DNA of 63,608 bases, the filler included, from Folioceros fuciformis (lineage: Eukaryota), in assembly GCA_049999805.1 (NCBI GenBank). It is 8 parts of 8 records of this genome, joined end to end, with 100 filler letters (N's around TTAATTAATTAA, not from the genome) between each part and the next. Parts side by side here need not be neighbours in the genome. Positions count along the whole stretch, not along the records: positions 47,888 to 56,712 come from JBNGIO010003938.1; 7 more parts are not named here. One strand, given 5' to 3'. The translations under genes were made by a program, and so were the position numbers. Positions 9,156 to 61,519 of this stretch are shown one piece after another. Numbering within the stretch: position 1 is the first letter of the stretch; the number at the start of each line of letters is the position of its first letter. The notes under the pieces are model-generated. The model ran no database searches. It worked only from the letters and a program-made list of their open reading frames with translations, and was not told the origin of the DNA.

Positions 9156-9492
9156 GTTATGGAATACCGATGCGGACAGGTTATGGAATATCGATGTGGA
9201 CAGGTTATGGAATATCGATGCGGACAGGTTATGGAATATCGATGCGGACAGGTTATGGAATACCGATGCGGACAGGTTATGGAATACCGATGCGGACAGG
9301 TTATGGAATACCGATGTGGACAGGTTATGGAATATCCGATGCGGACAGGTTATGGAATACCGATGTGGACAAGTTATAGAATACCGATGTGGACAAGTTA
9401 TAGAATACCGATGCGGACAAGTTATGGAATACCGATGCAGACAGGTTATGAAACACCGATGCAGACAAGTTATGGAATACCGATGCAGACAG
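9156..9492. repeat. 24-bp minisatellite GGTTATGGAATACCGATGCGGACA, ~14 copies
   Basis: Direct tandem repeats with few substitutions and one 1-bp insertion near 9335. They explain the spurious CGQVMEYR ORFs. Confidence 0.95.
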
Positions 9493-9518
9493 GGACTACA
9501 GACTCATGTTTTCTAGTT

Positions 9519-15049: not shown

Positions 15050-15149
15050 NNNNNNNNNNNNNNNNNNNNNNNNNNNNNNNNNNNNNNNNNNNNTTAATTA
15101 ATTAANNNNNNNNNNNNNNNNNNNNNNNNNNNNNNNNNNNNNNNNNNNN
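15050..15149. other. Artificial scaffold linker 44N-TTAATTAATTAA-44N (others have their 12-mer starting at 19931, 33613, 43976, 47832, 56757 and 60204)
   Basis: Identical 100-bp spacers carrying stop codons in all six frames. Confidence 0.97.
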
Positions 15150-19886: not shown

Positions 19887-19987
19887 NNNNNNNNNNNNNN
19901 NNNNNNNNNNNNNNNNNNNNNNNNNNNNNNTTAATTAATTAANNNNNNNNNNNNNNNNNNNNNNNNNNNNNNNNNNNNNNNNNNNNA

Positions 19988-26920: not shown

Positions 26921-27904
26921 CGTGGTGAGCCACCGCCGGCACTTCCTGGTGGTAGTCAGCCGCACCTTCTCCCCCAAGCAGGTTGCAGTCTCCACAAACT
27001 CCACGAATTTCCGGCGCGCCTTGCTATCACTCATCCGCCCCCGCTTGGTGTTCCAGCCGCCGGCTGAGGCAGAAGCGGACGCGATCTACGTCTGTGGCAT
27101 GGAAGCCGGTGACACCGAAGCAGAAGCAGCAGTGGCGAACGGTGAGTCCGTCGTGGCACGCGGCAGTCGAGCGCACATTTCGGCATCCAAATCTCACGCT
27201 CCCTGCTTCCGTGCCCTCAGATTCTTCCTTCTCAAGCTGGACACGGACACCTCCCCCGCCAACGCTGCCGCGGACTTCCTACGAAACCGCAACCGCAAAA
27301 GCCACCGCCTGGTGCAAGACAAGCTCATCCCGGTGTCTCACGGAAAGCGTCACCACCCCACCCCACCCCACCCCACCACTAGNNNNNNNNNNNNNNNNNN
27401 NNNNNNNNNNNNNNNNNNNNNNNNNNNNNNNNNNNNNNNNNNNNNNNNNNNNNNNNNNNNNNNNNNNNNNNNNNNNNNNNNNCCACTAGTCTCACCACGA
27501 TACTCTCCGCCGCGGCAGCGGCAAAGCCGAGATTCCACCACCGCCCACCAGAGCGCCCAAGCTGAGCTCCCTGAACATCGGACGAGACACTGGCTGCCAC
27601 AAAGCTACACTGTCCCCAGCCCTGTCCCTGCAGTAATTGGAGCAGGCCGGCACCCGCTCGCGCACTCTGCCTCAGCAGGCAGCGGGCAGCAGGCAGCAGG
27701 CCAGGCCTGCTCAGATGCGGCGGCACAGGCACAATTGTGTGAAGATCCGTAGGCCGGCGGGGCGGCGAGATGCCGTGCTCCGAGGCGGCTGCGGAAACAG
27801 AAGAAGCAGCGGCCGGTGCAGAGGCCTGCCGTGCCCTCGGTCTCTCAGAGGCCAGGAGCGGTAGAGCCGCAGACAGGGCGGGGACAGGGACAAGGGACAA
27901 GAAG

Positions 27905-33498: not shown

Positions 33499-33668
33499 AG
33501 TATGGAATGGTGGAAAGTGTCAAAAGAGAAAACATTAAACGTGAAGATGTCATTCACCTTCAGTGAATNNNNNNNNNNNNNNNNNNNNNNNNNNNNNNNN
33601 NNNNNNNNNNNNTTAATTAATTAANNNNNNNNNNNNNNNNNNNNNNNNNNNNNNNNNNNNNNNNNNNN

Positions 33669-34145: not shown

Positions 34146-34659
34146 CGGGTGCCACCTCTGGAGTTGCTGGATCGACGCCTGGCTCTCATACACAGCCCAT
34201 TTTTGGCTAGATAGCATTTGGCTCTTTCCTATCACAAGGAAACCCAACAACATCAACATCAGGATGGAACCTAGCAGGCAATTTTCCTAATTTTGCACCT
34301 AGACCTTTCTCAACAGGGTCAGCAGGAGGCACAAGATCAAATCCTGCCTCGACCAGGGTTGCAACAGGCATAACTGTAGTACAGGCGTTAGGTCCTTCAT
34401 CTTATTCCGGATTTCTTGCCGCACGCTATTATAACCCACTGCCAAGCTACAGAGTTGGACTTGGGAATCCACTACCTACCACAGGAGCTGGAATCACCAA
34501 CCCACTGCTGGCACTTGGAGCCGGGTATGGTAATCCCGTAAGCGGTTATGGAACCGGACTTGGACAAGGACCTCCACAACCACAAATGCCCGGTCCGGGT
34601 ACCGCGCTCACACATCCTGCACAGGCACTGCCAATAGCTTATAGCCTTCTTACACAATT

Positions 34660-37600
34660 GAGTTCAAGGAGCGAGATAGGTTTAAGGGGAATAAATATCC
34701 CGACTGGAGTGTTCGCATGGGTGCTGCACTAGATGTACAGCATGTGTGGGGTGTTGTTAGTGGACAGATCCGGCCACCTGCAGCTACTGCTCCACAAATT
34801 GATCAGGAGAGATGGGAGAATGCCAACAACGTAGCCCGAGCCCTCATCATTAGTGGGCTTGATGAAGTGTTAGTGCCAGATGTAGCTTTCCTTACCAAGA
34901 CCGAGGACATCTGGACACAACTTGCACAAACATACGATGTGAAGAATGTACTCACCCTATGTGTTGTCAGAAGTGAGCTGTTTACTCTTCGCATGTGTGA
35001 TGGTGACAAAGTTACTACTTTTGTTGGAAAATTCAGGCAACTTAGAGCTACTTTGATTTCACTTGGTTTTCCCATGCCTGAGCTTGATGCTGTAGTACAG
35101 CTTTTGACTAGCCTTCCCAATAGCTACCAATCTTTTGTCACTAGCTATGGTACCACACTTTGTGATGTTGGTAGAGCTGCAGCAGCAGGTCAACCAGTGA
35201 TGATTAGCTTTGCGGATGTAGTTGGAGCTCTCTTTCAAGAAGAGTGGTCTTGCAACCCATCGCACTTTAATTCTAGCAGGACCAAAACTGACAAGGTTTT
35301 CTCCACATCCAAGTTCCACCCACAAGGCCATAGCAAGCAATTTTCTGCAACTGGCCCTTCTAAGGATTCCAAGTCAGGACAGGTCAAGAGGACAGGTGCC
35401 TGCAATTGGTGCAGTTGTCTTGGTCATTGGGAACGAGAATGTAGAAAGAAAAAGTCTCGAGAACCTAGGAAAGCCGAGAAGACTCCTCAGGCTTATTTAG
35501 TCTCCAAGCCTTCTAAGGCCAGCACATCTGGCAAGCCTCCCGTTGTTATGATAGTTTGTCTTTCCACTGCTTCCAGGGTAGATGATGCCTGGTACTTGGA
35601 TTCCGGAGCAACGACACACATCTGTCACAACAGGACTTTGATGAGCAATTTTGTCTCACTGCACACTGTTGAACGGGTACTTTTGGGAGATGAGCTTACA
35701 AGAACATGACTCAAGATTCTTGGACGCGGCTCGTGCTATTTTCAGTCATCTAATGGAGAGCTTCTTTGACTTGACAACGTCCTCTATGTGCCTGATATGG
35801 CCAAGCATCTTCTGTCAGTAAGCCAGCTTATGCAGCTTAAACGCTTTCAGTTAACTTTTACTTCTAACGGCTGCATGCTCACTACATCTGGTCCTTCACC
35901 TTCCCTGGTTGCTATGTGCTTGCTAGAGCATGATTTATATCAGCTAGATATGTTCCGTGTACCTGTTAAGAGTGCTCGTGTGGCTGAGAGGTCTTAGACA
36001 GCTTTAGCTCAATTGTGGCATGCCCGTTTGGGCCATGCTAACAAGGATAAACTCATAAAAATATCCAACTTAGAATGTTATAGAGAACCACTACCTAAGT
36101 GCTTTAAGAAACTTCCCACATGTGAAGCCAAGTAGAAAGAACTCCCATTTCCAACCACTGTAGCTACACGGACTGCATCAGTCCTAGACCTAGTTCATGT
36201 AGATATCTTTGGGAAAATACATGTTCCTTCTTTAGGTGGTTCTCTTTATTACCTCACCATTACTGATGATTTTAGCCGCTACTCTTGGACCTTTCCCATG
36301 AAAAAGAAGTCGGACACATTTGTCTATTTTCAAGAATGGCTTACCATGGTTCAGAGATAGATTGGCTGCTCTCTTAGATGCTTGAGGTCGAACAATGGTA
36401 CGGAGTTTGTGAATGGCCCTTTTGATGAGTACTTATCTGGACAAGGGATCATTCGGCAACTGAGCATTCCATACACTTAGCAACAAACGGTGTTGCTGAG
36501 CACTGAAACCAAACTTTGCTCAACATCACTCGGAGTATGCTAGCTTGGTTTGGCTTGAGCAAGGCGTATTGGGCAGAGGCAGTTGTGACTACCACCTACA
36601 TACTCAACAGGTTGCTTACCACAGCTGTTCCTGACTGTACACCTTTCGAAAGGATCTGGAAATGCAAGCCCAGCTTGCGCCATCTCCGTGTGTTTGGATC
36701 CCCTGCATATGCTTATATTCATGAGGAACAGAGGAAGAAGATGGAAGATCGAGCTCGACCCCTTATTTTTGTTGGATATGGTGAGGAGACGAAGGCCTAC
36801 AAGTTATATGACCCCTCCACTAGATCCTCAGTCTTTGCTTGGAGCGTCACTTCCAAGGAGCTCACTCAACCAGCTACGCCATCTTCTCTTGCTTTTGCCC
36901 CTGCTCCTCACTTCGATGATGCGGATTTTGATGCCCCTCCCACAAAGTATCCTCAATATGCTGCTTATGAACCACCACCTCACCCTTGTTTTGATCAATA
37001 GGCAGCTAGCAGTTCAGGGGGTGGAATTCCCGCTTATGTGCAGGTTCCGCAGGCTCCCCTTGCATCACCGACACAGGTTCCTGTGCAAGCACTTGCACCA
37101 CTGACTCCTGCACCCACAGCCACAGTTAGTGCTGACCCTGTTTTGGAATTTCCCGAGTAGCAAGATGCAAAACTTGAGCAGGATGACGAACCAAAATTTG
37201 ACACACAACATGTGGACATCCATCCAAATGTTCCTGACCAGCTAGAAGATGAACCTGAGCTGGCAGCCCTCCTAGAACTTGAGATACCACCAGCTGAGGA
37301 GACACTTCATGAACCTGCAGTTGAGGAACGGAGGTATCCTACAAGGTCTCGTCCTGCATGAGACAACTGGAATACAAGACCATATGAACCAGAGGATTTT
37401 CGTCTTCCTCGAATCTGCAAGGCTATGTGAAGCCCTCTCTACAAGCATTGCTCATCCAGCAGAACCTCGCACATACAGAGAAGCTATCATCGGTCTAGAT
37501 AAGGCTCATTGGATTCCATCCATTCAGGATGAGTACAACTCACTAATAAAGAATGAAACAAGGGAGCTTTGCCCTCTACCTACTGGAAGGAGAACCGTAA

Positions 37601-39829
37601 GCTGCAAGTGGGTTTTCAAACACAAACTCAACACCAAAGGTGAAACAACACGCTATAAATCACGACTTGTTGCTTGTGGATTTTCTCAAGTAGCAGGTGT
37701 TGATTTTAACGGAACCTTTAGCCTAGTTGTGAAGACTTAATCTATTCGGATGATATTAGCCTTGGCTGTAGCTAGGGATTGGGATCTGGAACAAATGGAT
37801 GGATCCACAGCTTTCCTCTATGGTGATTTGGATATTTATATGGATTAGCCTGAGGGCTTTGTGGATCCTGAACACCCAGATTGGGTATGTAAGCTTAAGA
37901 AGAACTTGTACGTGCTCAAACAGAGTGNNNNNNNNNNNNNNNNNNNNNNNNNNNNNNNNNNNNNNNNNNNNNNNNNNNNNNNNNNNNNNNNNNNNNNNNN
38001 NNNNNNNNNNNNNNNNNNNNNNNNNNNGAAGAATGAAACATGGGAGCTTTGCCCCCTACCTGCTAGAAGGAGAATGGTAAGTTGCAAGTGGGTTTTCAAA
38101 CACAAACTCAACGCCAAAGGTGAAATAGCACGTTATAAATCACGACTTATGCTCGTGGATTTTCTCAATTAGCAGGTGTTGATTTTAACGAAACTTTTAG
38201 CCCGATTGTGAAGACTCAATCTATCCGGATGCTGTTAGCCTTAGCTGCAGCCAGGGATTGGGATCTGGAACAAATGGATGTCTCCACAACTTTCCTCTAT
38301 GGTGATTTGGAGGAAGATATTTATATGGATTAGCTCGAGGGCTTCGTGGATCCTGAGCACCCAAATTGGGTATGTAAGCTTAAGAAGGCCTTATATGGGC
38401 TCAAACAGAGTGCCCGTGAGTGGTATAAATGCATAGACAAGTATCTTTGCTCTATAGGTTTCCTGCAAAACCCAGCAAATTCTAATGTATGTCTACACCA
38501 AGATTGGTTACCTAGTTGTTTTAGCTCTTTATGTAGATGATGCCATCTTGGCGTCAAATAATTGAGGGCTATTAGATTGGGCTAAGGGCATGCTTCATAA
38601 ACAGTATGATCTGAAAGATATTGGCCCTCTCACTTTTGTTTTAGGCGTATAGCTTCTTAGGGACAAGGAAACACGTACTTTGATTCTTCATCAAACCAAG
38701 TACATCGAAGAGACACTTTGGCGTTTTAATCTTCAGGATGCTAAGCCAGTTAGTACTCCTGGATGTGTTGGTGTTAAGCTTTCTACTCTTCAGTGTCCTC
38801 AGGATGATGATGATCGAGAAGCCATGAGCCAGATTCCTTATCAGCATGTTGCGGGCTGCCTCAACAATATCAGCTGCTGGACACAACCTGACATCCAGCA
38901 TTCCGTGAGTGCAGTTTCACAATATCTGGAGAATCTTGGCCAAGGACACTGGATGGCCGTTAAACATATTTTAAGGTATCTGAAAGGGACTTCTACTTTT
39001 GGACTCTGCTTCAAGATGACGACCTCACCTTGAAGGGGTATGTTGATGCGGACTGGGCGACTGACCGAGATCAATGTAAGAGCATCTCTGCATACTGCTT
39101 CCTCCTATCTGGTACAGCTGTTAATTGGAGTTCGAAGAAGCACACATCCATTGCTCTCTCATCTACCGAGGCCGAATATAAGGCTCTTACGGATTCAGTC
39201 AAGGAGGCCGAATGGGAGCGGACTTTCCTTGTTGGTTTGAATTTTCCACAGGCTATCCCTACAACCATCTTCTGTGACAACATGTCAACTATAGCTTTGG
39301 TAGGGAATCCTCGATATCACGCGCACACCAAACACATAGAAGTTCACCATCATTTTGTTCGACATGCTGTGGAGCACAAGGTCATCAAGATCGAGTATAT
39401 ATCAACAAAGTTGAACACCGCTAATGTGCTTACACTTATCGACAAGCAAGCATGTCTTCCACATGGAGGCATTGGGTCTAGTAGAGTATTCTTCCTACTT
39501 GCCTTGAGTTGCAGGTGGAGGCGCTAGGTGCTGGACGGATGAAGCTTACTGCAAACATAATCGTCCAACACTCAGCTCGTTTTCTACTTTGGCCATCTTC
39601 GTTTTTGTCTACGTCCTTAGTGTAACCAGCGTCGTGGTTAAGGGGGTGTGTCAAACCATAGTTAATTATAGTAACCACGGTCACTGGGTTACCTAGACTA
39701 GGGTTAGATATATTATGAAGGGTTACATAGTTAACACGTAGGGTTTAGTATTTAAGACCAACTCTTTGTAATCATTGTTATCTCATTCATTATTCAAGTT
39801 TGTTGTTCTCTCTAAACAATATTATCACC
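34660..39829 (+). mobile_element. Degenerate Ty1/Copia element: gag (CCHC), protease, integrase, RT, RNase H, PPT and 3' LTR (from 39649)
   Basis: [74 protein letters not shown] and KHIEVHHHF motifs. PPT TTAAGGGGGTG then TGTCAAACC. An RT segment is duplicated across the gap at 37928-38027. Confidence 0.93.
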
Positions 39830-43931: not shown

Positions 43932-44031
43932 NNNNNNNNNNNNNNNNNNNNNNNNNNNNNNNNNNNNNNNNNNNNTTAATTAATTAANNNNNNNNNNNNN
44001 NNNNNNNNNNNNNNNNNNNNNNNNNNNNNNN

Positions 44032-44734: not shown

Positions 44735-47440
44735 GGCCGGGTAGAAATAGGATCAGCATCATCATCCGTCTCCAGTGCTGCGTTTTGTCCTTATTCAAGA
44801 ACAGGAGGATGTTGTTCATGCAAGGCTGGCAGATTTGGATCTTCAAGCACAGGTATGGTTTCAGGGTCAACTACACCTGCCTCATTAGTATCTGCAAAAT
44901 CAAAATCTGCTATGTCTTCCCCACCTGCAGGAACAATGTCCTCAGGTCGAACATGTTGAGTTCCATGATTAGTTTGGTCAAAATAGGAATCAACAAAGCC
45001 TGTGGAGTCTTCATCATTGTTGAGAATAGGATCCTTACTAGACTCCAAGGATGCCCAAGTGCGACTTTCATCAAAGGTAACACTTTGGGCATAGACAATC
45101 TTGTTCTTACGGACATCATAAAGCTTATAGGCTTTGATTCCTTCTATGTAACCTAACATGAGAAGCTTTTTAGCCTTATCTAACAACTTTTTCCTCTTCT
45201 CCTTAGTATGAAGGCATAAGCCACACAACCAAAAGTTTGCAAGTGTTGATCTAATGGTTTGGGACCCGTGAAGGCCTCTTAGGGGGTTTTACCTACAACA
45301 GAAGTTGTGGGTAACCTATTTCTAAGGTATGTTGAAGTCATAATGGCTTCTGCCCAATCTGACAAGGGAAGCTGAGCAGAATGTAGCAGCGAAGATGTCA
45401 TTTCCTACAAAGGTAGGTTTAGTCGCTTACCAACTCCATTCTATTGAGGGGTATAGACAACTGTTAGTTGTCGACCAATGCCTTCAACCANNNNNNNNNN
45501 TCTGTTGAGGGGTATAGACAACTGTTAGTTGTCGACCAATGCCTTCAGCCACACAGAAAGCCTGAAATTCATTGGAGGTAAACTCTCCCCCATTATATGA
45601 TCTCACAGTTTTTAGTTGCTTTCCAATCCACCTTTTAGCATACTTTAGATAATCTCTGAAATGTCTAAAGCACTCACTTTTCTGTTTCAGAATGTAGGTA
45701 GTGACAAACCTGGTTTTGTCACCTGTAAAAGTAAGGAAATATCTCCCACCTCCTATGGATTCCTATGAGAGTGGGCCACACAAATATGTGTGCACAAGTT
45801 CTAAAACCTATGAAGCCCTGTGTGGTGCTTTATTCTTAAAAGCAGCTTGATGTCTCTTAGAAAGAACACAGGACTCGCAAAGTGGGAGTGGAGCCAACGT
45901 TCCAATTGGTCCATCTTGATAAAGGTCACTAACAGCTAACCTCTGTAGTTTTGCTGTGTGAGGGTGACCTAGTCTTGCATGCCATAACTTAGACTTGTCT
46001 ATTTGTTGTGTAGGTACAGTGGTGACATCTCGAGCGAAGTGAGAGGTTGGAGCACCACTACTTGTATGAAGACGAAAAAAATCATGATTTTTAGAACCAT
46101 AGGCAAGTATTTTTCTATGGTCAAATGCATCCAGCAGTTGACACTCAGTTCTCGTAAATAGCATATGACAGTTATTGTCAGCATTCATCTTTCTGACTGA
46201 AATTAGATTTCTAGTCATGTCTGGCACATAGTAAACGTCATGCAGTGTTAGTACTGCACCGGACAGAACTAATAAGTCTATTGTGCCACGGCCAGGGGAC
46301 ACTAAGGATCTGTCATCTCCCAGGTAAACGTATTGATCCTTAACTGACTAATATGTTTGAAAAGATCCTTTGTCAAAGAAAATGTGTGCTGTAGCACCTG
46401 TATCTAAGTACCAGTCTACAGCTTGGCTTACCTTCAATTTTGTTGACAAGCAAGCAGGATGCAAGTATGAACTTGCAAAGACTCTCGTACCTACAATGAG
46501 GGCAGAGGGGGTAGGTTGTTTCTTCACAACCACGTGAGTCCCAGCAACTGATGAACCTCCTTGCGAGGAACACTAGATTGCTTCTTTCTACACTCACGTT
46601 CCCAATGACCAGGTAACTTGCACCAGTTACAAGTTCCTATTCTTTTGGGTTTTCTTTGGTTGGCTCCTTGTTCTTATGAGCCACCACCTCTAGATGACCT
46701 ACCTCCACCTGTATTGTAGGGTTTTCCTCCCCCACGACCCCTATTGGATGTGTAGAGGGCTTGCTGTTTTCCAGAACATTTACTGGAACTCCTTGTTGCT
46801 TCTTCTTGGAGCAATGCTCCCACTAACTCTGCAAAGGTGGTTTCAGGAAGTGTAACATTTGCTGCCTTTGCCAGTTTTGAGGTTTGAAGATATGAAGCAT
46901 TAAAAGATGTCACAAAATGTGACCCTGATTTTGGGAGAGATAGTAAGAAGTATAAGGTTAGCATATCTTCTTTGACATTCTCATTTGAGTCACTCTCTAG
47001 TTTAGAGATAAGTGTCCTGAAATGACCAAGGTGCTTCTCTACTAATTCTCCATCTTTCATCTTGCAATCCTGTAAATTACGCAAGGCTTTCAACTGACTC
47101 GTTGTGTTGCTGCCTGAATACAGGTCCTGAAGTCGTGTCCAGATTTCTGCTGAGGTTTTATTTCCAGATGTCTGCCTCAGCATATCTGAGGTTAAACCAC
47201 TCCGGACGAGGAACATGGCAGCTTCATCTTTAGCCACCCATTCGTCCTTTTTAATCGTTTCAGCGGTGGTAGGTGTGGTGGTAGTAGTTGGGAAGTCTTC
47301 ATCACCAACAGCTATCTTCCAAAGCTTTTTATTTTGTAAAGCTCCACGCATTCTGATTACCCATATATCGTAATCATACTCACCAAATATGTCCTTTTCC
47401 CTAAACCCTTCCCCACCATAGCTAGATGAGGGATCAGCCA
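44735..47440 (-). mobile_element. Degenerate Ty1/Copia gag-protease-integrase
   Basis: Gag ORF 46674-47440, CNWCKLPGHWEREC, WYLDTGATAH, LWHARLGHP, RSYNGGEF and MLGYIEGIKAYKLYD. Its zinc knuckle is closely related to that of the 34.7-kb Copia. Confidence 0.92.
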
Positions 47441-48299
47441 TTTTTCCTCTTTGGTATTCTAGGTTAGCTACTCCCAAAACACTAACATACTAACAATGAC
47501 TGACCTTTATGGGTTTGTTTATCTAGACCTTAGGCACGTGTATCTTCAGCAACAGAGTCAAAGAATGTTAGCAACAAGGTTAGACAAACTGTCTACAGGT
47601 ATGTTTACTAACCCATGGTGCTGTTGTGGTGGCAAAACCCCGGGCACTGTTTGCCAATGGGTTCAACCTTTAGCAGCCACACTTATCCCATTATCGTTGA
47701 GACATTGGGTTTCCTTCCTATGAAAGAGCGATGGGGTTCCTAGCTGCTATGGATGGAGGGTCGGACTCAATCGACTCGATGACAGATNNNNNNNNNNNNN
47801 NNNNNNNNNNNNNNNNNNNNNNNNNNNNNNNTTAATTAATTAANNNNNNNNNNNNNNNNNNNNNNNNNNNNNNNNNNNNNNNNNNNNCGATATAAGTTAT
47901 GTTAATAATTATGTAAATTATAATTATGTAATAAATAGGTCATATTAATATTTATACAAATAATAATTAGTTAAGAATTGAGTCATGTTAATGATTATGA
48001 AAATAATAATTAGTTAAGAATTGTGTCATGTTAATGATTATGAAAATAATAATTAATTAATAATTGAGTCATAGCTACTTGAAGGGAAACAAATCTTACA
48101 ACTACACCACTCGTGCTAAAATGTGCAGCTAGTAGGATTGCATTGAAAAGTGGTTCTACACTATGGAGTCATCAACATTCAAAGTTAAGGCATAGCAATA
48201 GTCGTAGGTGAGGAGACAAGATGGTCATAGATTGGAGCAGGCCCAAACTTGCATCATAATGGTAAGGTTGTTGGCGATCAAGATTGAAAATACTTAAGG

Positions 48300-48552
48300 A
48301 AATAGTTATTCCCTTTTGGTGCACATGTACTATTTATGTGCAAAAAGAACAGAGGACTTAGATTGTGTCTAGATTATAGAGCTTTGAACCGTATCATGAT
48401 CAATAATGCATATCTTTTGCCAAGAATGGATGACATGTTTGACAGGTTGAAGGGTGCCAAGTATTTCACCAAGCTGGACCTGATGGTAGAGGACTATCAG
48501 ATCAAGATTGCTGAAGGGCATGAGTACAAAACAACATGTAGAACAAGATACA
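48300..48552 (+). mobile_element. Ty3/Gypsy RT N-terminal fragment
   Basis: PFGAHVLF..KK.RGLRLCLDYRALN...YLLPRMDDMFDRLKGAKYFTKLDL...YQIKI...KTTCRTRY. Confidence 0.9.
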
Positions 48553-48729
48553 TAAAAAGGGGACCTAGCCAAGGGCTAAGTACAGTGTAGTGGAGTTGAG
48601 TTCAATATTTGGATGGTATGCAGTACTCATGCATAGCTGCACATTCAAACTCCTCATTAAGTGTTGCTAGAACTGTCCTGTGAATCTTAGATTTCTATTG
48701 TAATACTTGTACACATACTTTTTGAACAA

Positions 48730-50200
48730 GTATACATACCTCAAAAGCGTCACTCCCTTCTTGGTGGGGATGAAGTGTGCTTGCCTGGTGAATTTATCAA
48801 CCACTATCATGATAGCTGTAAATCCATTATTGGGAGGCAAGGGCATGATGAAGTCTATAGAAATGCTTTTTCATGGCCCCTTTTGGGATAGGTAGGGGTT
48901 GTAACAAACCTATCGGTCTAGACTGCTCAACCTTATCCTGCTGACAAACAACACATGCCTTGACATAATCCAATGTATCTTCATACATTCCTTGCCAATA
49001 AATAGCTTCCTCAACTTTTCATAAGTTGAATCACCTCCACGGTGACCAGCACTTGGCACATCATGACACTTAGAAAGCAATTTCTTGTTCAAGCCTACAA
49101 AGTTAGGGATCATAACTCTCTTCTGTTTGAATATCAATAGTCTATCTCGGAGTTTGAACATGCTTCCTTTCTCTGCCACCCTATTCGTCCAGTCCTACAC
49201 TTCAGGATCTTGCAGATAAGCTTCTTTAATCTCTTTGTGACCATCCTAAGGTTCAATCACAATTGTCATTGCCTTCACTTCTTGACTCTACTTGCAACTC
49301 AGCGCATCTGCAACCTTATTCTCTTTTCTAGGTTTATATCTAAGAGTCGCATCATACACAATTAGAAAATCTTGCTATCTAGCTTGTCCCGCATTCAAGT
49401 TCAATTAGTTTGAGAAGTATGTTGTTCTAATATTATTAGTATACATCACAAAAGACCTACTCAAGAGATAGTGCCTCCAAGCCTTTTAGACAGTGAATGA
49501 TAGCAATCATCTCCTTCTCATACGTGGGATACTTCCTCTTATAAGGATGCAACTTCCTTGACTCAAAAGCTAACGTCTTTTGGTCTTGCATCAAAACTCC
49601 ACCTATAGCCACATCTGAGGCATCACAATACACTTCCACATCTCTCTTGGGGTCATACATTCCCAACATCGAAGTAGTACTTAACTTCTTCTTCACGTAT
49701 TCAAAGGTTGCCTAACACTCAACATCCCATCTCCAAGCTTTTGCTATCTTCAAGAGGTCAATTANNNNNNNNNNNNNNNNNNNNNNNNNNNNNNNNNNNN
49801 NNNNNNNNNNNNNNNNNNNNNNNNNNNNNNNNNNNNNNNNNNNNNNNNNNNNNNNNNNNNNNNNTCTTAGCAAATATATGTACAAACCTCATGTACACAG
49901 AAGCCAAACCCATAAAGCTTTGCACCTCATGAATGTTTCGATGGGGCTGTTAATCTTTGAATGACCTTAACTTTATCAGGATCCATTCTAATGCCCTTGG
50001 CAGAGATAATGAAACTTAAGAATGGACTCTCTATCTTGACAAAATCACACTTCTTGATTGCCAAGAACAAAGAATTCTCTCTTAGTCTTTATAACACTTT
50101 CCTCAAGTGTTCCACATGCTCCTCCAAGATATGACTATAGATCAAAATGTAATCGAGATAGATTAGAACACACTTATCCACCAGATCTATGAATATAGTG
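48730..50200 (-). mobile_element. Ty3/Gypsy RT C-terminus, RNase H and integrase fragments
   Basis: KCVLIYLDYILIYS, VYCDASDVAIGGVLMQ...AFESRKL...YPTYEKE, NKVADALS, CHDVPSAGHRGG and ISIDFIMPLP motifs. Confidence 0.9.
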
Positions 50201-50569
50201 GAGGAGGAAATAACAAAGCTATGTGGTAGTGAATAATAACTTAAAACTTAAATAAATAGTTGTTAAGTTAGTGACTAGAGCTTATGTATAAAAAGGGACC
50301 AAGCCAAGGCCTAAGGATTCCACAGTTGAGTGGAGTTGAGTATCTCCACAAAGCGTTGAGAACAATGGGTGCTTGGGCTGCACCTTGAGAGCATGTGTTG
50401 CTTGGGCCGTAAGTACATAAGAGATATACTGTGAAGAGCTTCCATAGGAGGTCAAGAGAAAGGGAGAACTAAACTCCTAGCTTAAACAAATATGGGAGTT
50501 CTCTCTAACCCTCCAACTTTGTATGTTCTTGTGGTTCTGAAATAAAGAGCGGCAGCTCTTAAAGAAGAG

Positions 50570-50725
50570 GGCGGGCATGTTCACCATACTGGACAAAGGC
50601 ATCAACTTGGTGTCCTTATTCCACGAGTTGTGTATGAAGCTGCTTTCCCTTCTCCAATCCCTGGGAGCCCATGCTTGCACATCCCTAGAGGAGGCAGATA
50701 AATATCACAGAATCAGGGACAAGGG
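50570..50725 (-). pseudogene. PPR gene fragment
   Basis: LVPDSVIFICLL*GCASMGSQGLEKGKQLHTQLVE*GHQVDAFV is a typical plant PLS-PPR segment with stops. Confidence 0.7.
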
Positions 50726-52403
50726 CTGCGACAGTTCTTCGAATCAGGCAGATGCGCACCCTTTCCACTGCATTACTTGGGTGGCACTGGCAAGATTGCC
50801 AGGCTTGAAATGCACCTGTCGAATTTCCGTCACCGGGCCGCGGGGACAAAATCTGGTCTGCATCACTGCTTCGCACAATTAGCCCCATCCTACTAGTCCC
50901 TTCTACTGTAGTTCTGGCATTAAAATTCCAGTCGCGAGGACTTGCATGCACCATGATCGATCCGACGCTCTTCCAGCAGTGGGCCAAGGTCGATCAAAAA
51001 TAAGTTCCTGACGGTCGGAACTCTTGAAGAGCTCACCCTAACTTCATTAGGCGTGACCTCCATGAGCATCACTCGTATGTGTTTCTGTTAAGCAATTGAC
51101 GATGAAGGCACGTGGTGGCCTCAGCCACTAGTGACAAGGTACAGGAAGATCCCACCCGTAGCGACTTCCCGCACTCCGCCGCGGAACCTCTCCCCTCGAT
51201 TGCCGACAGGCAGAGCTCTGAAGATTGGGCACATCCTGAATGGGCTCAGTAAAGAAGCCTTTCGGAAGGGCAACGAAATGAACGTTCAAATCTTGGAAGA
51301 CGACAAGAGGCAGATTCGGTTCTTCGGAACAGCCGGGTTTGCAAACAAATGTGATCGACTTGTACATGCTTGCTCGCTATGCACCGTTTAGTCAGACATA
51401 TGCGTGTGTATGTCTTCAAATGGGTTAAATATTGGTCACCAGTGTATTGGTCAGCAAATCGATGCTGGCATGCAACAAAACAAATTCTGTCGAGTCCATA
51501 ATGTTACATGTGGCAGCCTTGGAACTGCGTATGCTACCGTTGTGAGCCGCTTCAGGAAACCCGACAACAAGGACTGCAACCGTTGACGATGCCCAAGGTT
51601 TGAGAGGACATGTGTTCGTGGTGACTGCCCCTAGCTTTTCACATAAATGGCATACGCTGGAGACATGGACGGAATGAAACACAACAGCAACAGGCCACAA
51701 CATGTCTCTGCACAACCATGTCGATAGCATCCAAAACATGGACAACCTACAGCACAGGAGCAACCACCTATCTACCACTGCGCCCTGTCTCCACCAGTTC
51801 CTACGCCAACTCATCCAGTTGCCCCTTCCAAGGGGTCCACAGTTGCTGCAAGGGTTCGCACGGTCTCTTCACAGCATCCGCTTGTCTGATGCACCACAGC
51901 CACAATGAGCGACCGTCCAGTGACCTACCGCTCGCTTCTGTCTGGTGTTACTGTTACATGAAGGCTTCTGAGGAGCTCCAGATGCGATTTGATCGTGGGA
52001 CATCTTGTTCCAGCTTTCGCTGCTCGGAAACTGAAATATCCATCCTAAAGATGAAAACGAAAGACGTGAAAATCACAAGACCGCAACTGTGTGTTTGCCT
52101 CTTCAAACCTAGAGCTGGAGCTGTGTACGAAACCGCAGTGCAACACGTTCTTCCCTCCCTACCGATAGCATCCATGAGCCATCATCTGCTCATGGACATC
52201 AGGACGTTGTGAGAGGTCTCTCTTGCCTAACAGGAATTAATGCGTAGAAAGGGAGAAGTGAGAAAACGCTCTCAGAAGCAGTTTCATACAGTCACCGACA
52301 AACAATCAGGATGTAGCTGAAGACGATACCTGACATTTGCTTCAAGGCATTACAGGACCCAGCTGGCCACACGCTAGCCAGGCATATGGAGAGCAAGGAA
52401 TGA

Positions 52404-53016
52404 TCAAGACCACTGATGCTTTTTCTCGGTTGTGGTGAGGACCTGGGAATCTTGGAATCTTTCCTACAATCCTTGTACGGTTATTTGCGAAACCTCCATG
52501 CCCCTGAGCTTGCGAATCACGCTTGTTAGAATGTTCATCACGCTTCTCAGAGAGTGCTTAATGATGGCTTCCATGAAAGCCATGATAAAGTTTGTGCCTT
52601 CCTTGACGTCTCCAAAAGATTTACCTCCAGGACTCGTGGAGAAACCACGAGAACGTCGCTCAAAGAATGAAGGAGTCGAATCCTCGTGCTGGCACCTGGC
52701 TTTCCTCAACACCAGACCCGTTAGCTTTGCTCCCAGTGGCAGGGTTGGCGGCGCCTAACCCTGCTTTTCTATCCTTTTGACAAGACTGCCAGTGCCTCGA
52801 CAGGCATTTATGACAAGCACCTAGTGCAGATCGCACCTAGTGCCAAGCACCTGCCGTGTTTGCCAAATACCTGCATTCTGCGATGGGCTTCACATATCAT
52901 CTTCAACATCAAGCTTCTCGGCCTTGTCTGCTTCACCTAAGCAAACATACTGTCTACCATCTTCTTCAGTTCGACCATGGGCATTGACACACAACACAGA
53001 GCAATGGTTGTCTTCC
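52404..53016 (-). pseudogene. Partial, diverged second copy of a caspase (C14A) p20/p10 domain
   Basis: EDNHCSVLCVNAHGRTEEDG (His-Gly at 52974-52979), ECRYLAN, VLVINACRGTG (52794-52808), FSTSPGGKSFGDVKEGTNFIMAF, ILTSVIRKL and RFQDSQVLTTTEKKHQWS*. Frameshifts and stops are present. Confidence 0.8.
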
Positions 53017-53037
53017 AGGGCTTAGGGAATGGAATGG

Positions 53038-53840
53038 TTAAGACCAGCATAGCTTTTTACTAAGTGTGCTGACGAACTGGGGACATTGAAATCTCTTCTC
53101 CCATCCTTCTTGAGTTTGTTGCCATCTCTTCATGCGCTGGACCTTGCCATGCACTCTTGTTAGAATACTCACCACATCTTCTGTTTGAGACTGATCAATG
53201 ATGGCGATTATGAAAGCCATGATGAAGTTTGGGCCTTTCTTGACATCTCTCAAAGATTCATCTCCAGGACTGGTGGAGTAAATGGTGAGAAAGTCGCTCG
53301 CATAATACAGGGGTCGAATTCTCTTGCTGGGACCCTGGCTTTCCTCAATGTCTGAGCCCATGGCTTTGCTGCTAGTGGCAAGGTTGGCGGTGCCTGAACC
53401 CTGCGCTTTCACGCTTTTGGCAAGATTGCCAGTGCCTCGACAATCATTTATGACAACCACCTTAGGCTTGTTAGCCAAATTCCCTCATTCAGCGATGCGC
53501 TTCAAAATAAATTATTCAACATAAAGCTTCTCCGCCTGGTCTGCTTCACCTAAGCGAACATACTCTCTACCATCTTCTTCAGTCCACCATGGCATTAACG
53601 CAAAACAGAAAGCAATCGTCCTTTTCGAAGTCAGGATGCCGGACAACGTGCTCCAACGTTGATTTCGCTTCCTTAAGATCGTCCACCACACAGGCTATCT
53701 CAAACTTCAAGGGCACACCACGGAGTAGAACGTCAAGTCGCCTCTGTCTAGCTGTCCTCCATCTGTCTTTTTCCATACTAACTATCGTTGCAAGACCTCG
53801 TCGGTAACCTGCTTTGACCCTTTCGCTTCGATATGACGGC
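53038..53840 (-). pseudogene. Animal-type caspase domain (peptidase C14A, p20 + linker + p10), frameshifted
   Basis: SYRSERVKAGYRRGLATIVS...LKFEI...DDL...DFEKDDCFLFCVNA[H]G, then E*GNLANKPKVVVINDCRG (Cys codon 53440-53442), then ASDFLTIYSTSPGDESLRDVKKGPNFI...ILTRVHGKV...QCPQFVSTLSKKLCWS*. Confidence 0.88.
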
Positions 53841-53849
53841 TCCTTCCCT

Positions 53850-54690
53850 GACTTCAGTAGAGGCGGTCCCTGTGACTGACTTTGGATACGATGGTTCCTT
53901 CCCTGAGGTTCTCCACGCACTCAGTCCTGATGATCCCTTCTACTAGTTCAACTCCCTCCAGGACTACCTTCAGCAGAAGCACAAAATGCTCTCAGTTCCG
54001 CAACAAAACTCTGCTGGAGAAATTCGATCGTTTCGTCTTTGCTCTTGAGTGACCTCATCAAAATGTCAACACGATCACCAATGTCCCCGGTCTCCTCCCC
54101 AGTATCCCCAGTGCTCTCCAAACATACGTCCATAACATAGTAGTTAAATTTGATCAAGTTGCGTGCAATGCTATACTGATGACACTGCATACCCTAGAGT
54201 CCATTAAACAAGATCTGTCGTAACTTGACCTGCAATGCACAACCATTGGCCATGTCATGAAAGCCAAAGAGAGCATATATCACTGGCGAAATGTCACAGA
54301 CCTCACAAGGTAACGTATTTGGAATCTTGGAAAGAAGCCTGGACGACAAACGTCTTCGTTTATCTCGGCATAGTAGCCACCTCTCTAAGTAGTTGTACTT
54401 GTGCCCTGTACCACCCTTCCAGTCTCTCGGCATTGTAGCCGCCTCCCTAAGTACGTGTACTTGCGCACTGTACCACCCTTCCAGACCAACTGTCGTTTCC
54501 CTTGAAGATCTTTACCTTCTGTGTCATCCAAGGTGAAGGGAACGAAGAATCCAGGGCTAGGGTTCGCATCATCTTCATAGCACAAGTTTAGTCTCTTCAT
54601 CAATAATAATACGAGATCTTCACCACGAGTCTCGTCCGCTTCCGTACCTTTGAGGATCTGATGACCTGGTCCAAGGTTGCATTGAGGAGA
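53850..54690 (-). pseudogene. TORNADO1-like Roco protein COR C-terminal region with one intron (~54231-54317), contiguous with the caspase domain
   Basis: EDLVLLLMKRLNLCYED...FVPFTLDD...YLGRRLQC...PGFFPRFQ|VKLRQ...RVDILMRS.KS.DET...FCASAEGSPG/VELVEGIIRTECVENL, matching recalled TRN1 motifs (LCYEKD, GRHL.C, GFFPRLQV, IDVLA.S, E.IIRP.CV..L). Confidence 0.8.
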
Positions 54691-56906
54691 TTTTGAGGCA
54701 AAATTTTTCTAAGCTGCTGCTTCCACCTTTCCTTCCCTCCCCCACTTGTCACCTGAGGACAGAACATGACTGTTGCTACACTGCACCTTGTAGGAGAGAT
54801 GCTTTCCTTCACATGGAAGGTGGGTCTGTGGACCGTAGGATCCCACCACCTGCGCTCTGCTCTGCTCAGCTCAGCTGGGCTCCCAGCCCATTCATCGTCA
54901 TCCGTTCCTTTAGACCTTTTTCCTCTGAATGAGAGTGCCCGTCTGGGTTACTTCAAATCCCACATTATACGTACCTCGGAAATATACATCATGCCTGCCA
55001 AAGGGAGAAAAGTCAGATTGCGTATTCGAATGAGAAACAGTCTGTATGTCGTTTCGTTCTGAATTGTGCGTGCATCAAAAGGTCTGCCTCCCGTTGTACT
55101 TAGGTTGGCTCAGCTATCGTAAAAATAAAGGCGAGCACGCTGAAGGATGCAGAGGGCGATTCGTCGGCAGAGCGCAGGGAAGGAGTACACAAACTAACGT
55201 CCACTACCCATACAAACTATGCAATTCTCTCATTCACACAAGCTATGCAATTATCCTGTTCAATGTGTGCCAAACAAGGAGCAAACAAGGAGAGAAGAAA
55301 CAGTCTCATCCTCCGCATTGTCGGAAGACAAACCTTCAATTAGTGGACCCCGTCCGTCGAATACTCCAGGTAGAAAGGGTCCAGTTCTGAATAAGCTCTC
55401 GGGTTCCTGTTTGGAACGCTGGACATGGTAGGGCGTGGAGGTGCATAGAGGAAATTCCTTCTGCACCTCCTCATTTCAGCAAGATGCCATCAGCATTGCC
55501 CCGCTCATGAACTCATGTTAGCCGTCAGTGGAGGGGTCAGATATCCGATTGGAGCGGTGGCAATGCAAGACTGGCCAGGACGAATGGGCCGTTCTGATGG
55601 AAGGCTGGCATCCATGTTCCACATCCCCGCCCTACAAGAGCTCGAGTCACAACACGACACAGCACTGTGCCTTTGGCCCGGTACATCAGTCAGAACGAAA
55701 GACAAGTTGGCTTGCTGACTGGCCAAGTTGTCTCACTTCTGCAACCAGCCATCAGGGATGAGAATCTGCATTTGTGGGGCAACGCCTTACACACAAGCCG
55801 AAACGAGTCGCACAGCCCGGCTAATGAAACCTCTGCCCACCAACACCGAGATACGCCCCGTTCACAATTCCCCTCGACATCCTGAAGGATCCCGGGAAGA
55901 ACAACTTACTTGAAATCAACCTGTGCATTAGGCAACTGGAGATTCATCAACGATAATTTACTTGAAATCTGCTGTTTTGGAGTTCCTGCCAATTCCCACG
56001 GTAACTGCACAAACGGAAACAGAGCTCAGCACACCGCAAACCAGGTCGGTCTGCTATTTCTTGAACCTGCACCGACAGAGAGATGTCAGGTATGACACTC
56101 CGAGCAGCTCCCAGTACGATGCAAGACCGTACTGTATACCACTGGTGGTCGGTCGGTCTGGAACTTGTCCGGCCCACACGTTTCCTGCGGGATCGAGATC
56201 GGGACACGAATACTAAATACAGTACATGTGTGTCGGTCAGTGTTCAGTAAGAGAACCCGGGCTTTATTGAAAGGAAGAGAGAGGAGCACGTGGTCCAAAC
56301 CAGGATAAACCACGGCGACAGCACCGAACCCAAAACGTGCTACCACTGGAATCACTGTGACACGAAGGCACAAGCTCCCGACGCCAGTTCAGAGAGGGAC
56401 ATCCTATCCCAGCTTTTGCCTGGTCGGGAAGGGAAGATATGAAGCATACATCCTCACGCTGGTGTACAAAACAATGTAAACACCAGAAGACGCCAAACTT
56501 GGACCTGCTTCTTGAAGCCAACATCTCCCAGCTGTGTACGAACACAGCACCATCTTCCCTCCCTATACATGGCCTCCACGACTCATCATCTGGTCATCCA
56601 CACCAGGACACTGTGAGAGGGCTTTATTGCCAAACAGGCAGAGAACGGGAGGAGACGTGACAAGGTCGGATCAGAAGCAGTTCGACACACCAACAAACAG
56701 GCAGTACAGTATNNNNNNNNNNNNNNNNNNNNNNNNNNNNNNNNNNNNNNNNNNNNTTAATTAATTAANNNNNNNNNNNNNNNNNNNNNNNNNNNNNNNN
56801 NNNNNNNNNNNNAGGAAAAATAAGTTGAAAAAGAAAACCAAACCATACCACTATTAACCCTTTTTCAACCAAAACAAACTACTACCCCAAACTTTGGAGG
56901 TTCACA

Positions 56907-57790
56907 ATTATGAGCCTTATGAACCCTTCAAGGTCGCTGCTCTGGGGGCCGTGGTGTGTGTCGACAGTGGCAGCACAGCTGTACCCACCCAACTGGCTGA
57001 GGACATTTGGGAGGATCCTTACACACTGCAGGATTTGCAAACAGGACTGCTGGATGCGACGTTGCCACCAACCACAGCTGAACAGGTCAAGCATCGTGTT
57101 GCCACATATTACTGGCGGGATGGTTATGTTATTAGGAAGCTGGCACATGGAGTTGAACGCTTGGTGTTGCCACCAGCTGATAGAGCTGCACTAATTAGTA
57201 AGGTGCACAATGATATGGGTCATTTTGGTGTCAAACGCACTTACAACATAGCCTGCTAGCCCCTCATTTTTATTGGCATGGGATGCATGGTCAAGTGCGT
57301 GACTGGGTTGCCTACTGCGAGCCATGCGACAGGGTGAAGACTTCCTTCACCATCTGGCACCCGGAGCTACATCCTTTGCCTATCATGGGCCTCTTTTTCA
57401 GATGGTCATGTGACCTGATTGGGGAGTTACCACGCACTGCACGTGGGAATGTGTACGTGCTTGTCATGATGGAGCATTTCTCCAAGTGGGTGGAGGCTAT
57501 CGCGCTGCCTAACAAGACGTCTAGGAGCACCTCTCAAGCATTCTTGTAGAATGTACTCAGCCGTTTCGGCAACTGTGCAGAATGTTTAACTTACCAGGGG
57601 TCAGAGTTCAGGGGTGAATTCCAAGATCTATTGGACGCAGCGTTGATAGATCATCGCAGGACAAGCAGAGACCATCCCCACACTGATGGTCTTGCAGAGC
57701 GAATGGTCTAGACACTCAAGAAGGGCTTGAGGAAGCTCTGTCTACAAATGCCTAAGACCGAGTGGGATCTCGCCTTGCCTTTTCCCAGTG
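56907..57790 (+). mobile_element. Ty3/Gypsy integrase fragment
   Basis: VHNDMGHFGVKRT...CEPCDR (HHCC), RWSCDLIGELP, EHFSKWVEA, QGSEF and DGLAERMV motifs. Confidence 0.9.
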
Positions 57791-59990: not shown

Positions 59991-61519
59991 CGGTAACCGT
60001 TCTAACCACAAATGCTAACTACTATAACTGTTTTAATAATTTGGATTGAAATAAAATTACTTTACTATAACTTCCAACAAGCTCTCCCTCCTCCTAATCC
60101 ACCCAACCACGTTCTCGGAATTTCTAACACTATGCCATGCTCAAAGAGTATGTATGTTCNNNNNNNNNNNNNNNNNNNNNNNNNNNNNNNNNNNNNNNNN
60201 NNNTTAATTAATTAANNNNNNNNNNNNNNNNNNNNNNNNNNNNNNNNNNNNNNNNNNNNCATGTTACAATGGTCTCAGGTGTATGACGCGCACTTGGACG
60301 TGCCAGGCTTCATGGTGGGTGGATACTTGTGCATGCCACAAAAGCCTATAGGTTTGGTATCCTTGAAACCCACAGTTTGAAATTAATCAGACACAGGCAT
60401 AAAACATGGTTTTCGAGAACAAAGAGTATGAATGAACATTCGGAATCATGTATGGACGGAAATCTAATACATTCGTGTCCCGTCACAGTATTCATGGTGT
60501 GATTGCATCATGAGGAGTGCGCATTGTCCTCCTTTTACCACCTACAATAACCCATGAAAACCAAGTACAATGGCAAGAATGGCCATTTACCGTTTGGATT
60601 TAGAGCAAAACCCCATTTTTGTGGACACACTCGAACTATTTCAGATGACGTTCATTTAGTTTCTCTCCATGAGTGGCCCTCCACAAGAAATGGAGGAACC
60701 CATTGCTAAAGTAGCATGTGCGTTGATAGTTGACAAGGCCAAGAATTATTTTCGTAAACAACTTTCACTTAAGGCCCTTGATTTGGTCTATCCTCTAGCC
60801 ATTCTTGGTTTTTGACTACAATCCTCCTGTCAACATGTCTATGGCCCCATCAGGTAGCTAGTGAAGGGGTCGTTGACCTTCAACCATGTGTGGTCTTGTC
60901 NNNNNNNNNNNNNNNNNNNNNNNNNNNNNNNNNNNNNNNNNNNNNNNNNNNNNNNNNNNNNNNNNNNNNNNNNNNNNNNNNNNNNNNNNNNNNNNNNNNN
61001 TTGTCCACCAAGCTAATTCCATCACTCTTCGTCTATGACCTTCTGTAAACGTGCCAAATGTTGCAAACAATCCAACAACGAGGGTTAAGTGCTTGTGTTG
61101 TGGTCCTTCAGAGCTATCAATTCCTTGTCTATCTTTTGAACATTCATGTAACACTCCTCGACCAGGCTCTTATGTGAGAAAGCCCAATGTCTTCCATTGA
61201 CTCATTAGAGCTATATGTTTTCTTCTCTTGCCCAAGATTAGAACTCAAATAAATCACGTGAGCACAATTGGTTGCTTAAACAAGTGAAAGTCAAAATAGG
61301 AATAGTTGCATGTGGAACGGAAAAGTTTGGTAATCGGTTTAGGAAAGTTTCACTTGGTTTCTTTTTGCTTAGAACAGTTCGAAGGGAGGCATGTGGAAGG
61401 TAGGTTTCTGGGCAAGCGCCCACGATAGGCAGTGAGCGGTTGGTGAAGGTTTTTATGGATTTTTTTAGTTCTATTCTGGTAGGTTAGGTGTGTGGTAATA
61501 GGACTAAGTAGTATCGGGT

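Follow-up and report, generated by a model that had tools for sequence, protein, structure and literature searches.

A TORNADO1-like COR fragment joined out of frame to a caspase-like domain in a multi-copy stretch of the Folioceros fuciformis genome

To our knowledge, land plants have no caspases proper, and in the textbook view metacaspases and other proteases take their place. This absence is echoed in a portion of PMC2064784. Excerpts of two papers (PMC4104024, PMC4917528) describe Roco modules coupled to cell-death domains: DAPK1 consists of Roc-COR plus a death domain, and Trichoplax has Roc-COR proteins with CARD or TIR. The former paper, a 2014 review, also assigns Roco dimerisation to the C-terminal half of COR and, in the part available, places the Roco genes of plants in flowering plants only. 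According to a passage of PMC11378527, plants have one or two Roco genes, the function of which is unclear. In prokaryotic conflict systems, as far as the excerpt of Kaur et al. 2020 (PMC7159879) goes, an AP-GTPase (Roc) is combined with COR, and related systems have effectors resembling caspases. In the literature searched, which took in few subscription journals, we found no account of COR or a Roco protein fused to a caspase, nor of a bryophyte caspase domain. Here we analysed a stretch of 63,608 nt (the window) from Folioceros fuciformis (GenBank:GCA_049999805.1), in which one scaffold (bp 47888-56712, GenBank:JBNGIO010003938.1) carries the end of a TORNADO1-like COR region followed by a caspase-like domain. 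All coordinates are those of the whole window, and all COR and caspase features lie on the minus strand (Table 1). The original prediction had seen here a cell-death sensor in which GTP-dependent COR dimerisation switches on the protease.

The physical join between the COR and caspase parts is real, is ancestral to several copies and lies at domain borders. The C-terminal domain of TORNADO1 is replaced by the caspase domain, behind which the 3' half of the caspase is partially duplicated. On balance, we lean towards a chimera formed at the DNA level that was multiplied as a repeat and has since been decaying, the window holding a dead, 5'-truncated copy. The partial duplicate (copy 2), a 62-nt duplication, further frameshifts and stops, and the multi-copy state described below had not been part of the original prediction.

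Homology to COR extended from bp 54663 to bp 53905, covering the end of COR-A and the COR-B of a TORNADO1-like plant Roco protein (the last ~200 residues). Three-frame translation and ORF (open reading frame) listing located every predicted COR motif at its expected place: MKRLNLCYE and YLGRRLQC within the ORF at bp 54385-54708, PGFFPRFQ ending at bp 54316, VKL beginning at bp 54229, and the FCAS...VELVEGIIRTECVENL stretch ending at bp 53905. When bp 54283-54708, with one TAG read as X, was used as the phmmer query against 1.84 billion representative proteins, 11 matches were obtained at E<=1e-3, the best having an E-value of 1.5e-9 and 49% identity over ~70 residues. Pfam searches of 10 of the 11 revealed COR-A or COR-B in nine, Roc in six and RI-type leucine-rich repeats (LRRs) in two, and the eleventh (P0013) contained COR-A; scores of these relatives were mostly under the curated cut-offs, with E-values of 1e-5 to 1e-9. 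P0012 was rejected as a Roco relative, being a MucBP/LRR surface protein and probably a spurious match. The named relatives (as cluster members) belonged to two liverworts, Riccia sorocarpa and Calypogeia fissa, and one hornwort, Nothoceros aenigmaticus, consistent with the predicted plant-derived, TORNADO1-like nature of this part, and P0014 (1439 aa) and P0029 (1321 aa), which are full-length, had the LRR-Roc-COR organization of the TORNADO1 type.

Comparison of these relatives with the whole window by tblastn gave exactly three pieces (bp 54663-54310, bp 54235-53957 and bp 53958-53905; summed E of 1e-17 to 1e-27), which together correspond to residues 864-1065 of the 1439 in P0014. The first piece, mainly in frame 1 and with one in-frame TAG, aligned with P0014 residues 864-969 and also with P0003, P0005, P0006, P0007, P0008, P0009, P0010, P0011 and P0013; the second aligned with residues 118-204 of P0009 at 46% identity, and was matched by P0007, P0011, P0014 and P0029 as well. 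Since the COR pieces of the window, read-throughs included, hit no Pfam model even at E<=10, their identification as COR is transitive via the relatives. A PDB search with the COR piece gave nothing relevant, and an ESM Atlas search with the COR-B ORF gave no usable match. Only the C-terminal ~45 residues of COR-A were retained, the first three-quarters being absent, and the LRR, Roc, early COR-A and post-COR C-terminal domain of P0014 had no tblastn match in the window at E<=1. Likewise, the Roc parts of the relatives (10+4) had no match at E<=1 in the scaffold ending at bp 56712, where no P-loop, DxxG or other Roc motif was found upstream either, and neither LRRs nor the TORNADO1 C-terminal domain of the relatives matched anywhere in the window. 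Thus, Pfam on ORFs, motifs and tblastn were all blank over the 54.7-56.7 kb region in which the original prediction had recognised no Roc or LRR exons, and the proposed link to a GTPase switch found no support, the window having no Roc or LRR.

It was also noticed that TORNADO1-like LRR-Roc-COR proteins occur in liverworts and a hornwort (P0007, P0009, P0011, P0029), by which the restriction to flowering plants given in the available part of PMC4104024 is outdated. The cluster of P0005 at 90% identity had 115 TORNADO1-like members, which derive from metagenome contigs of JGI/IMG and in some cases bear the name 'GTPase SAR1 family protein'; it may represent another expanded plant Roco family hidden in metagenomes.

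The first two COR pieces are separated by an intron. To compare the locus with other copies, three public runs under the same organism label, from two studies (X1, X2 and X3), were used; they contain 39-47% of the words of the stretch, and their contigs were aligned at >=90% identity over 4.4 kb, with contig depth taken neither as copy number nor as expression. A further run, X8, gave no aligned contig. No run is on record as RNA, X1 being only guessed to be so. One X1 contig (record 5), and none of X2 or X3, skipped bp 54227-54298; with the cut shifted by +3, the skipped segment has CT..AC ends on the plus strand and is the intron at bp 54230-54301 (Table 1). The intron had been predicted between PGFFPRFQ and VKL, and its acceptor was exactly as placed. 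The canonical gene has an intron at the same codon, as P0003 reads into it right after PGFFPRFQ, whereas P0014, a cluster mate of P0003, runs on into COR-B at that codon. Retention of this native TORNADO1 intron indicates that the COR fragment was derived from genomic DNA and is no retrocopy. In the window copy, the conserved exon end after PGFFPRFQ is without GT and the donor used lies 14 nt downstream, so splicing is out of frame. The sequence of P0005 likewise breaks off at this intron site, following ...GFFPRLQV.

Caspases carry a catalytic Cys in a Q-A-C-x-G-like pentapeptide and a catalytic His in an S-H-G-like motif. The ORF at bp 53038-53484 matched Peptidase_C14 with an E-value of 2e-15 over profile positions 114-232 of 233, and matched 108 distinct PDB sequences at E<=0.01 (best E 2.4e-8), of which the 60 listed were all caspase-7, caspase-3 or ancestral (reconstructed) effector caspases, with human caspase-7/-3 closest; the predicted caspase identity was thereby upheld. 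The nearest ESM Atlas clusters were caspase-8-like and 'Caspase domain' (score 0.95). Judged from these alignments, the protease domain is nearer to caspases than to meta- or paracaspases, and putatively of the animal (C14A) type. In copy 1, NDCRG aligned on the QACRG of caspase-7 so that the catalytic Cys is kept, the chain end aligned with that of caspase-7, and the Arg of S-L-R fell on the Arg of S-W-R, i.e. the p10 Arg is kept, through which alone a specificity for Asp may be suggested. The catalytic His of copy 1 is gone by frameshift, the site reading VNAMVD. Ahead of the Cys, the caspase is split over two frames, first frame 0 (bp 53803-53582), with a first-strand-like stretch and a degenerate His motif, and then frame 1 (bp 53580-53515). 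By itself, the N-terminal p20-like part had no Pfam match and no PDB caspase at E<=10, i.e. it was not significant, and Peptidase_C14 profile positions 1-113 were undetected in every frame piece. The claim that a caspase p20 begins just downstream of COR on the same strand therefore stood as to strand and proximity, while the N-terminal p20 itself was not significant alone.

Copy 2 was 74% identical in DNA to bp 53031-53619 and matched Peptidase_C14 with an E-value of 3.5e-4; it contains three in-frame stops and retains VNAHG and INACRG. Comparison of the two copies over 163 codon pairs gave a dN/dS of ~0.74, i.e. the divergence of the tandem caspase copies is nearly neutral. Copy 2 read through gave nothing relevant in the PDB. 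Searches with the caspase ORF or the two-copy alignment against metagenome contigs, prokaryote genomes and viral contigs matched patterns and yielded no relative confirmed by tblastn, and shared-5-mer protein searches with the COR-A piece, the caspase C-terminal ORF and the junction peptide gave no match, which is weak evidence.

Between the last COR-homologous codon (bp 53905) and the first caspase-like strand (bp 53803) lie 101 nt, of which the first ~12 codons past bp 53905 still resemble the COR relatives by eye. COR runs in frame 1 to a TGA at bp 53856-53854 and the caspase in frame 0, which is open from bp 53920; the two parts are in different frames, as had been predicted. The prediction that no start, intron or transposable element intervenes was also borne out, no start codon, transposon end or convincing intron being found between the COR and caspase parts. 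Five GT..AG intervals of 44-68 nt in the junction would put the caspase in frame, four of them being stop-free; having weak signals and no contig support, they were rejected as small introns and ascribed to chance. Careful examination of the junction revealed that a 25-nt stretch of the COR end (bp 53906-53882) is repeated 55 nt downstream at bp 53851-53827. The two stretches agree at 21 of 25 positions and score 30, whereas none of 500 shuffles scored above 22. This indicates that the junction has undergone a local duplication, which marks a rearrangement at the DNA level. Around the unit, target-site duplication, inverted termini and hairpin were not found, the flanking repeats being only the direct repeats R.

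A 200-nt contig of X2 (record 8) bridges the junction over bp 53741-53938, differing from the window by 18 substitutions and by only one insertion, of 2 nt at bp 53761, so the join is not a one-off. In it, frame 1 carries COR and frame 0 the caspase, i.e. out of frame as in the window; an in-frame COR-caspase fusion, which the original prediction had proposed, was thus found neither in the window nor in the sole bridging contig. With this insertion (+TC) and +C at bp 53740, the upstream caspase part stays in frame 0 and acquires the R-x-G-x-x-x-D spacing of animal caspases. Loose contig ends at bp 53904 and bp 54608 were considered as breakpoints and rejected, since the loose letters read as diverged homologous sequence and not as foreign DNA.

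The same contig bears on whether the join is an assembly chimera, or a contamination by an animal living on the plant. The animal-like character of the caspase and the construction of the window as an artificial concatenation of small scaffolds would suit such an origin, which we nevertheless regard as very improbable, because the sequence is N-free from bp 49865 to bp 56712, an independent DNA contig spans the junction, the attached COR part is nearest to liverwort and hornwort proteins, and three runs of two studies share the organism label and the 39-47% of words mentioned above. That the locus is of plant origin is supported by the similarity of the COR part to bryophyte proteins and by the presence of the join in independent runs.

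It could also be supposed that a truncated TORNADO1-like fragment happens to lie beside an independent caspase-like gene or pseudogene with its own upstream exons, spliced over or around the COR part. Frame 0 is indeed open for 39 codons ahead of the caspase domain, and distinct contigs numbered 9-17 at COR positions against 2-7 at caspase positions. One X1 contig joins bp 54694 directly to bp 53920, with five filler letters between, and the COR part (bp 53921-54693) gone; the 773-nt skip has non-canonical TC..TT ends on the plus strand, and the contig looks like a deletion derivative or an assembly switch rather than the trace of an intron. Furthermore, there is no frame-0 ATG before the first caspase strand, and the upstream ORFs showed neither a prodomain of caspase type nor any other exon, and we consider an accidental neighbourhood of this kind unlikely.

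The window copy is heavily damaged. Its frame changes at ~54640, at ~54400, in the intron, at 53955, in the junction, at 53740 and at 53590-53584, and stops occur at 54387-54385, ~54196, 53856-53854, 53514-53512 and 53487-53485. The COR part is spread over three frames with two TAG stops and the 62-nt duplication, having no uninterrupted ORF; a 4-nt insertion at bp 53952-53955 shifts the last COR-B segment off the preceding piece. The caspase part has suffered single-base losses at bp 53740, 53590 and 53584, and three local tandem duplications were counted in the copy altogether.

Alignment of the runs gave 194, 376 and 383 contig pieces (X1, X2 and X3, respectively) on the 4.4 kb, with all 30 bins covered, including those of the non-coding-looking region at 54.7-56.7 kb. 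Among the X2 pieces, 61 were at >=99%, 122 at 95-99% and 193 at 90-95% identity, and one alternative letter at bp 54318 was common to up to 17 distinct X2 contigs. These many diverged contigs indicate that the stretch is a multi-copy family, and TORNADO1-like sequence seems strongly expanded in this organism, as up to 17 distinct contigs of one run lie at a single COR position (within bp 53900-54660). Several lesions were absent from other copies (contigs in X1, X2 and X3, respectively): 1) +C at bp 53740 (1, 2 and 1), 2) +G at bp 53590 (1, 3 and 2), by which the His codon is restored, 3) +T at bp 53584 (2, 4 and 3), 4) lack of the 4 nt at bp 53952-53955 (1, 2 and 1), 5) A>C at bp 53514 (2, 2 and 7), which turns TAA into GAA, and 6) replacement of bp 54345-54424 by 20 letters (joint 54344->54425; one contig in each run), by which the duplication is gone and which in the COR frame reads T-F-L, as in the relatives ahead of PGFFPR. 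These results indicate that the founder had open COR-B and caspase frames. X3 record 19 spans bp 54563-54752. The sole hint of transcription or splicing is the GT..AG-skipping contig of X1, a run only guessed to be RNA.

In the chimera that we favour, the join would have arisen by rearrangement of DNA, as is suggested by the genomic, intron-bearing COR fragment together with the COR-end stretch duplicated in the junction. The unit would then have been amplified as a segmental or transposon-like repeat with ~2 kb of non-coding flank and would be decaying neutrally; the window locus would make no protein and sense nothing. The near-neutral divergence of the tandem caspase copies fits this reading, as does the setting, a small unplaced scaffold bounded by an artificial linker, with retrotransposon debris on the flanks. 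Several observations weigh against this. The whole of COR-B up to its end is there, as is the caspase from its first strand, and breakpoints that both fall at domain borders are rare in random breakage and fit a selected fusion or exon shuffling. The two parts are on the same strand only 101 nt apart, at least five frame-breaking lesions are missing from other copies, the founder frames were open, and the insertions seen in other copies, +TC (53761) and +C (53740), yield the R-x-G-x-x-x-D spacing. In addition, a near-identical copy may be transcribed and processed, going by the GT..AG contig of X1 (only guessed to be RNA), and small frame-joining GT..AG intervals (47-68 nt) with weak signals do exist in the junction. 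Finally, the junction was seen in just one other copy, and neither transposon ends nor a target-site duplication was identified.

Part of this evidence would suit a different origin, in which the window is a pseudogenised member, and thus the relic, of a functional (LRR-Roc-)COR-caspase family with GTP- or ligand-controlled COR dimerisation activating the caspase, the upstream exons being lost or lying past the scaffold end at 56.7 kb. The close same-strand join at domain boundaries, its presence in another copy and the possibly spliced transcript contig in X1 fit such a family, and so do the frames, the catalytic His codon and one stop repaired in other copies. The catalytic Cys, the p10 Arg and, in copy 2, the His are kept, and the native TORNADO1 intron points to a genomic fusion rather than a retrocopy. 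Against it, the reading is out of frame across the junction in both of the two copies in which this can be seen, the window is without Roc or LRR, and the 5' limit of COR homology near bp 54705 is common to other copies (X3 record 19). Proteins carrying both COR and Peptidase_C14, as the original prediction implied, did not appear, Peptidase_C14 being present in 0 of 12 Roco relatives scanned, and word-based protein searches, the junction peptide included, found nothing. That non-coding flanks were amplified along with the unit, as was a partial caspase duplicate already in decay, is likewise at odds with it, and so is the duplication scar in the junction. We therefore hold a once-functional family to be possible and clearly less probable than the decaying chimera. 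That a TORNADO1-derived Roco-caspase family is both expanded and expressed, with a C14A-type caspase wired to the COR of a GTPase switch and the window as a dead member, appears doubtful.

If an intact version existed, COR-B would hold two caspase domains together, and activation would follow from their proximity. The COR half retained in the window is the dimerisation half, and any protein made from it would most naturally be activated by proximity; sensing and dimerisation as originally proposed would be pure conjecture at this locus. Most surprising of all is that a land plant should have a caspase domain of C14A type. Even as pseudogenes, these copies raise the questions of whether the bryophyte C14A-like domain originated by ancient retention or by transfer, and whether a Roco-caspase protein ever functioned in plants. 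An intact member, if there is one, would add a new effector architecture to plant cell death, and a Roco-caspase family, if true, would give land plants an executor of cell death or immunity on the pattern of the initiator-caspase platform of animals. With no intact member, the locus would still be instructive, as a chimera of gene fragments that was multiplied as a repeat.

The window was put together artificially from small unplaced scaffolds, and genes on segments joined by the artificial linkers are therefore not real neighbours. In the scaffold of the COR-caspase unit, Pfam identified gypsy-type reverse transcriptase and RNase H debris at bp 48306-49711, and none of the 10 ORFs upstream of the unit gave anything meaningful in Pfam. 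The unit is bracketed by the direct repeats R, 293 nt each and 4404 nt apart (blastn), which may be remains of a tandem array or repeat-unit ends. In other segments there were a gypsy-type integrase (bp 57214-57549), two copia-type retrotransposon bodies (bp 34211-39527, plus strand, and bp 44791-47489, minus strand; gag Pfam E of 1e-24 and 1e-26), a GT92-like ORF (bp 13307-15049) and a plus-strand ORF (bp 9060-9551) in which a tandem unit coding for the octapeptide VMEYRCGQ occurs ~8 times, followed by a related degenerate repeat. An intronless minus-strand ORF of 497 codons (bp 25592-27085), on another scaffold segment, encodes a protein kinase (Pfam E 1e-46) that by eye is similar to plant receptor-like cytoplasmic kinases. 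An Rfam scan of the whole window gave 0 matches.

Table 1. Positions in the window of the features of the COR-caspase unit, its flanks and the artificial linkers
Feature	Position (bp)	Strand	Evidence or remark
TORNADO1-like exon, COR-A end and COR-B start up to PGFFPRFQ	54310..54663	-	phmmer, tblastn
62-nt tandem duplication, two units 82-88% alike, breaking the COR frame	54354..54477	-	repeat search, blastn
Intron, 72 nt, GT..AG on minus strand	54230..54301	-	skipped by X1 contig; sequence read
COR-B exon, frame 0, one in-frame TAG	53957..54235	-	tblastn; Pfam COR-B in matching part of relatives
Last COR-B segment (VELVEGIIRTECVENL), frame 1	53905..53958	-	tblastn, 65-67% identity over 17-18 residues
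Junction/linker, 101 nt	53804..53904	-	frame translation, repeat test, bridging contig
Caspase copy 1, N-terminal p20-like part, frame 0	53579..53803	-	motifs only
Caspase copy 1, post-His site through catalytic Cys (INDCRG) to C-terminus, frame 1	53038..53578	-	Pfam, PDB
Caspase copy 2, partial tandem duplicate of caspase 3' part, frame 2	52397..53008	-	blastn, Pfam, motifs
Upstream stretch, no recognisable coding content, multi-copy	54709..56345	.	Pfam on 10 ORFs, tblastn, Rfam
Direct repeat R, upstream partner	56346..56638	.	blastn, repeat search; 67.5% identical to 51942-52234
Direct repeat R, downstream partner	51942..52234	.	blastn
Linkers (first four of seven), each 44 N + TTAATTAATTAA + 44 N	15050-15149, 19887-19986, 33569-33668, 43932-44031		stops in all six frames
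Linkers (remaining three)	47788-47887, 56713-56812, 60160-60259		stops in all six frames

Comparison with described systems shows both shared and divergent features. With Roco proteins of the TORNADO1 type (P0014, P0029 of Calypogeia fissa and P0007 of Riccia sorocarpa), the window shares the COR-A end and COR-B at 30-49% identity and the intron at the same codon, after PGFFPRFQ, whereas it is without the LRR, the Roc and most of COR-A, the ~370-residue TORNADO1 C-terminal domain is replaced by the caspase, and the reading frame is disrupted. Among solved structures, the best matches were effector caspases of animals (caspase-3/-7, MEROPS C14A), with the Cys pentapeptide, the p10 Arg and the chain end aligned; in contrast to these, the window caspase is in a plant, has Asn in place of the pentapeptide Gln, has lost the His in copy 1, follows a COR fragment instead of a death-fold prodomain, and has an N-terminal p20 half that is not statistically recognisable.

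Transposon-captured or segmentally amplified chimeric gene fragments, of the Pack-MULE or Helitron type of capture, are known from plants. Like these, the unit brings two unrelated genes together on one strand and is multi-copy, possibly transcribed and decaying amid transposon debris; unlike them, it has no terminal repeats, hairpin or target-site duplication, only direct repeats 67.5% alike. In the portions of the literature covered on DAPK1 and the Trichoplax Roco proteins, a Roco module is likewise coupled to cell-death machinery, with caspases recruited via adaptor domains, whereas in the window COR is linked to the protease domain directly, in a copy that would make no protein. The prokaryotic conflict systems, as excerpted in PMC7159879, are bacterial and not of plants, and a direct COR-caspase fusion is not described in that excerpt; they share with the COR-caspase join the logic of an NTPase switch and a COR dimeriser with an effector repertoire that includes caspase-like peptidases.

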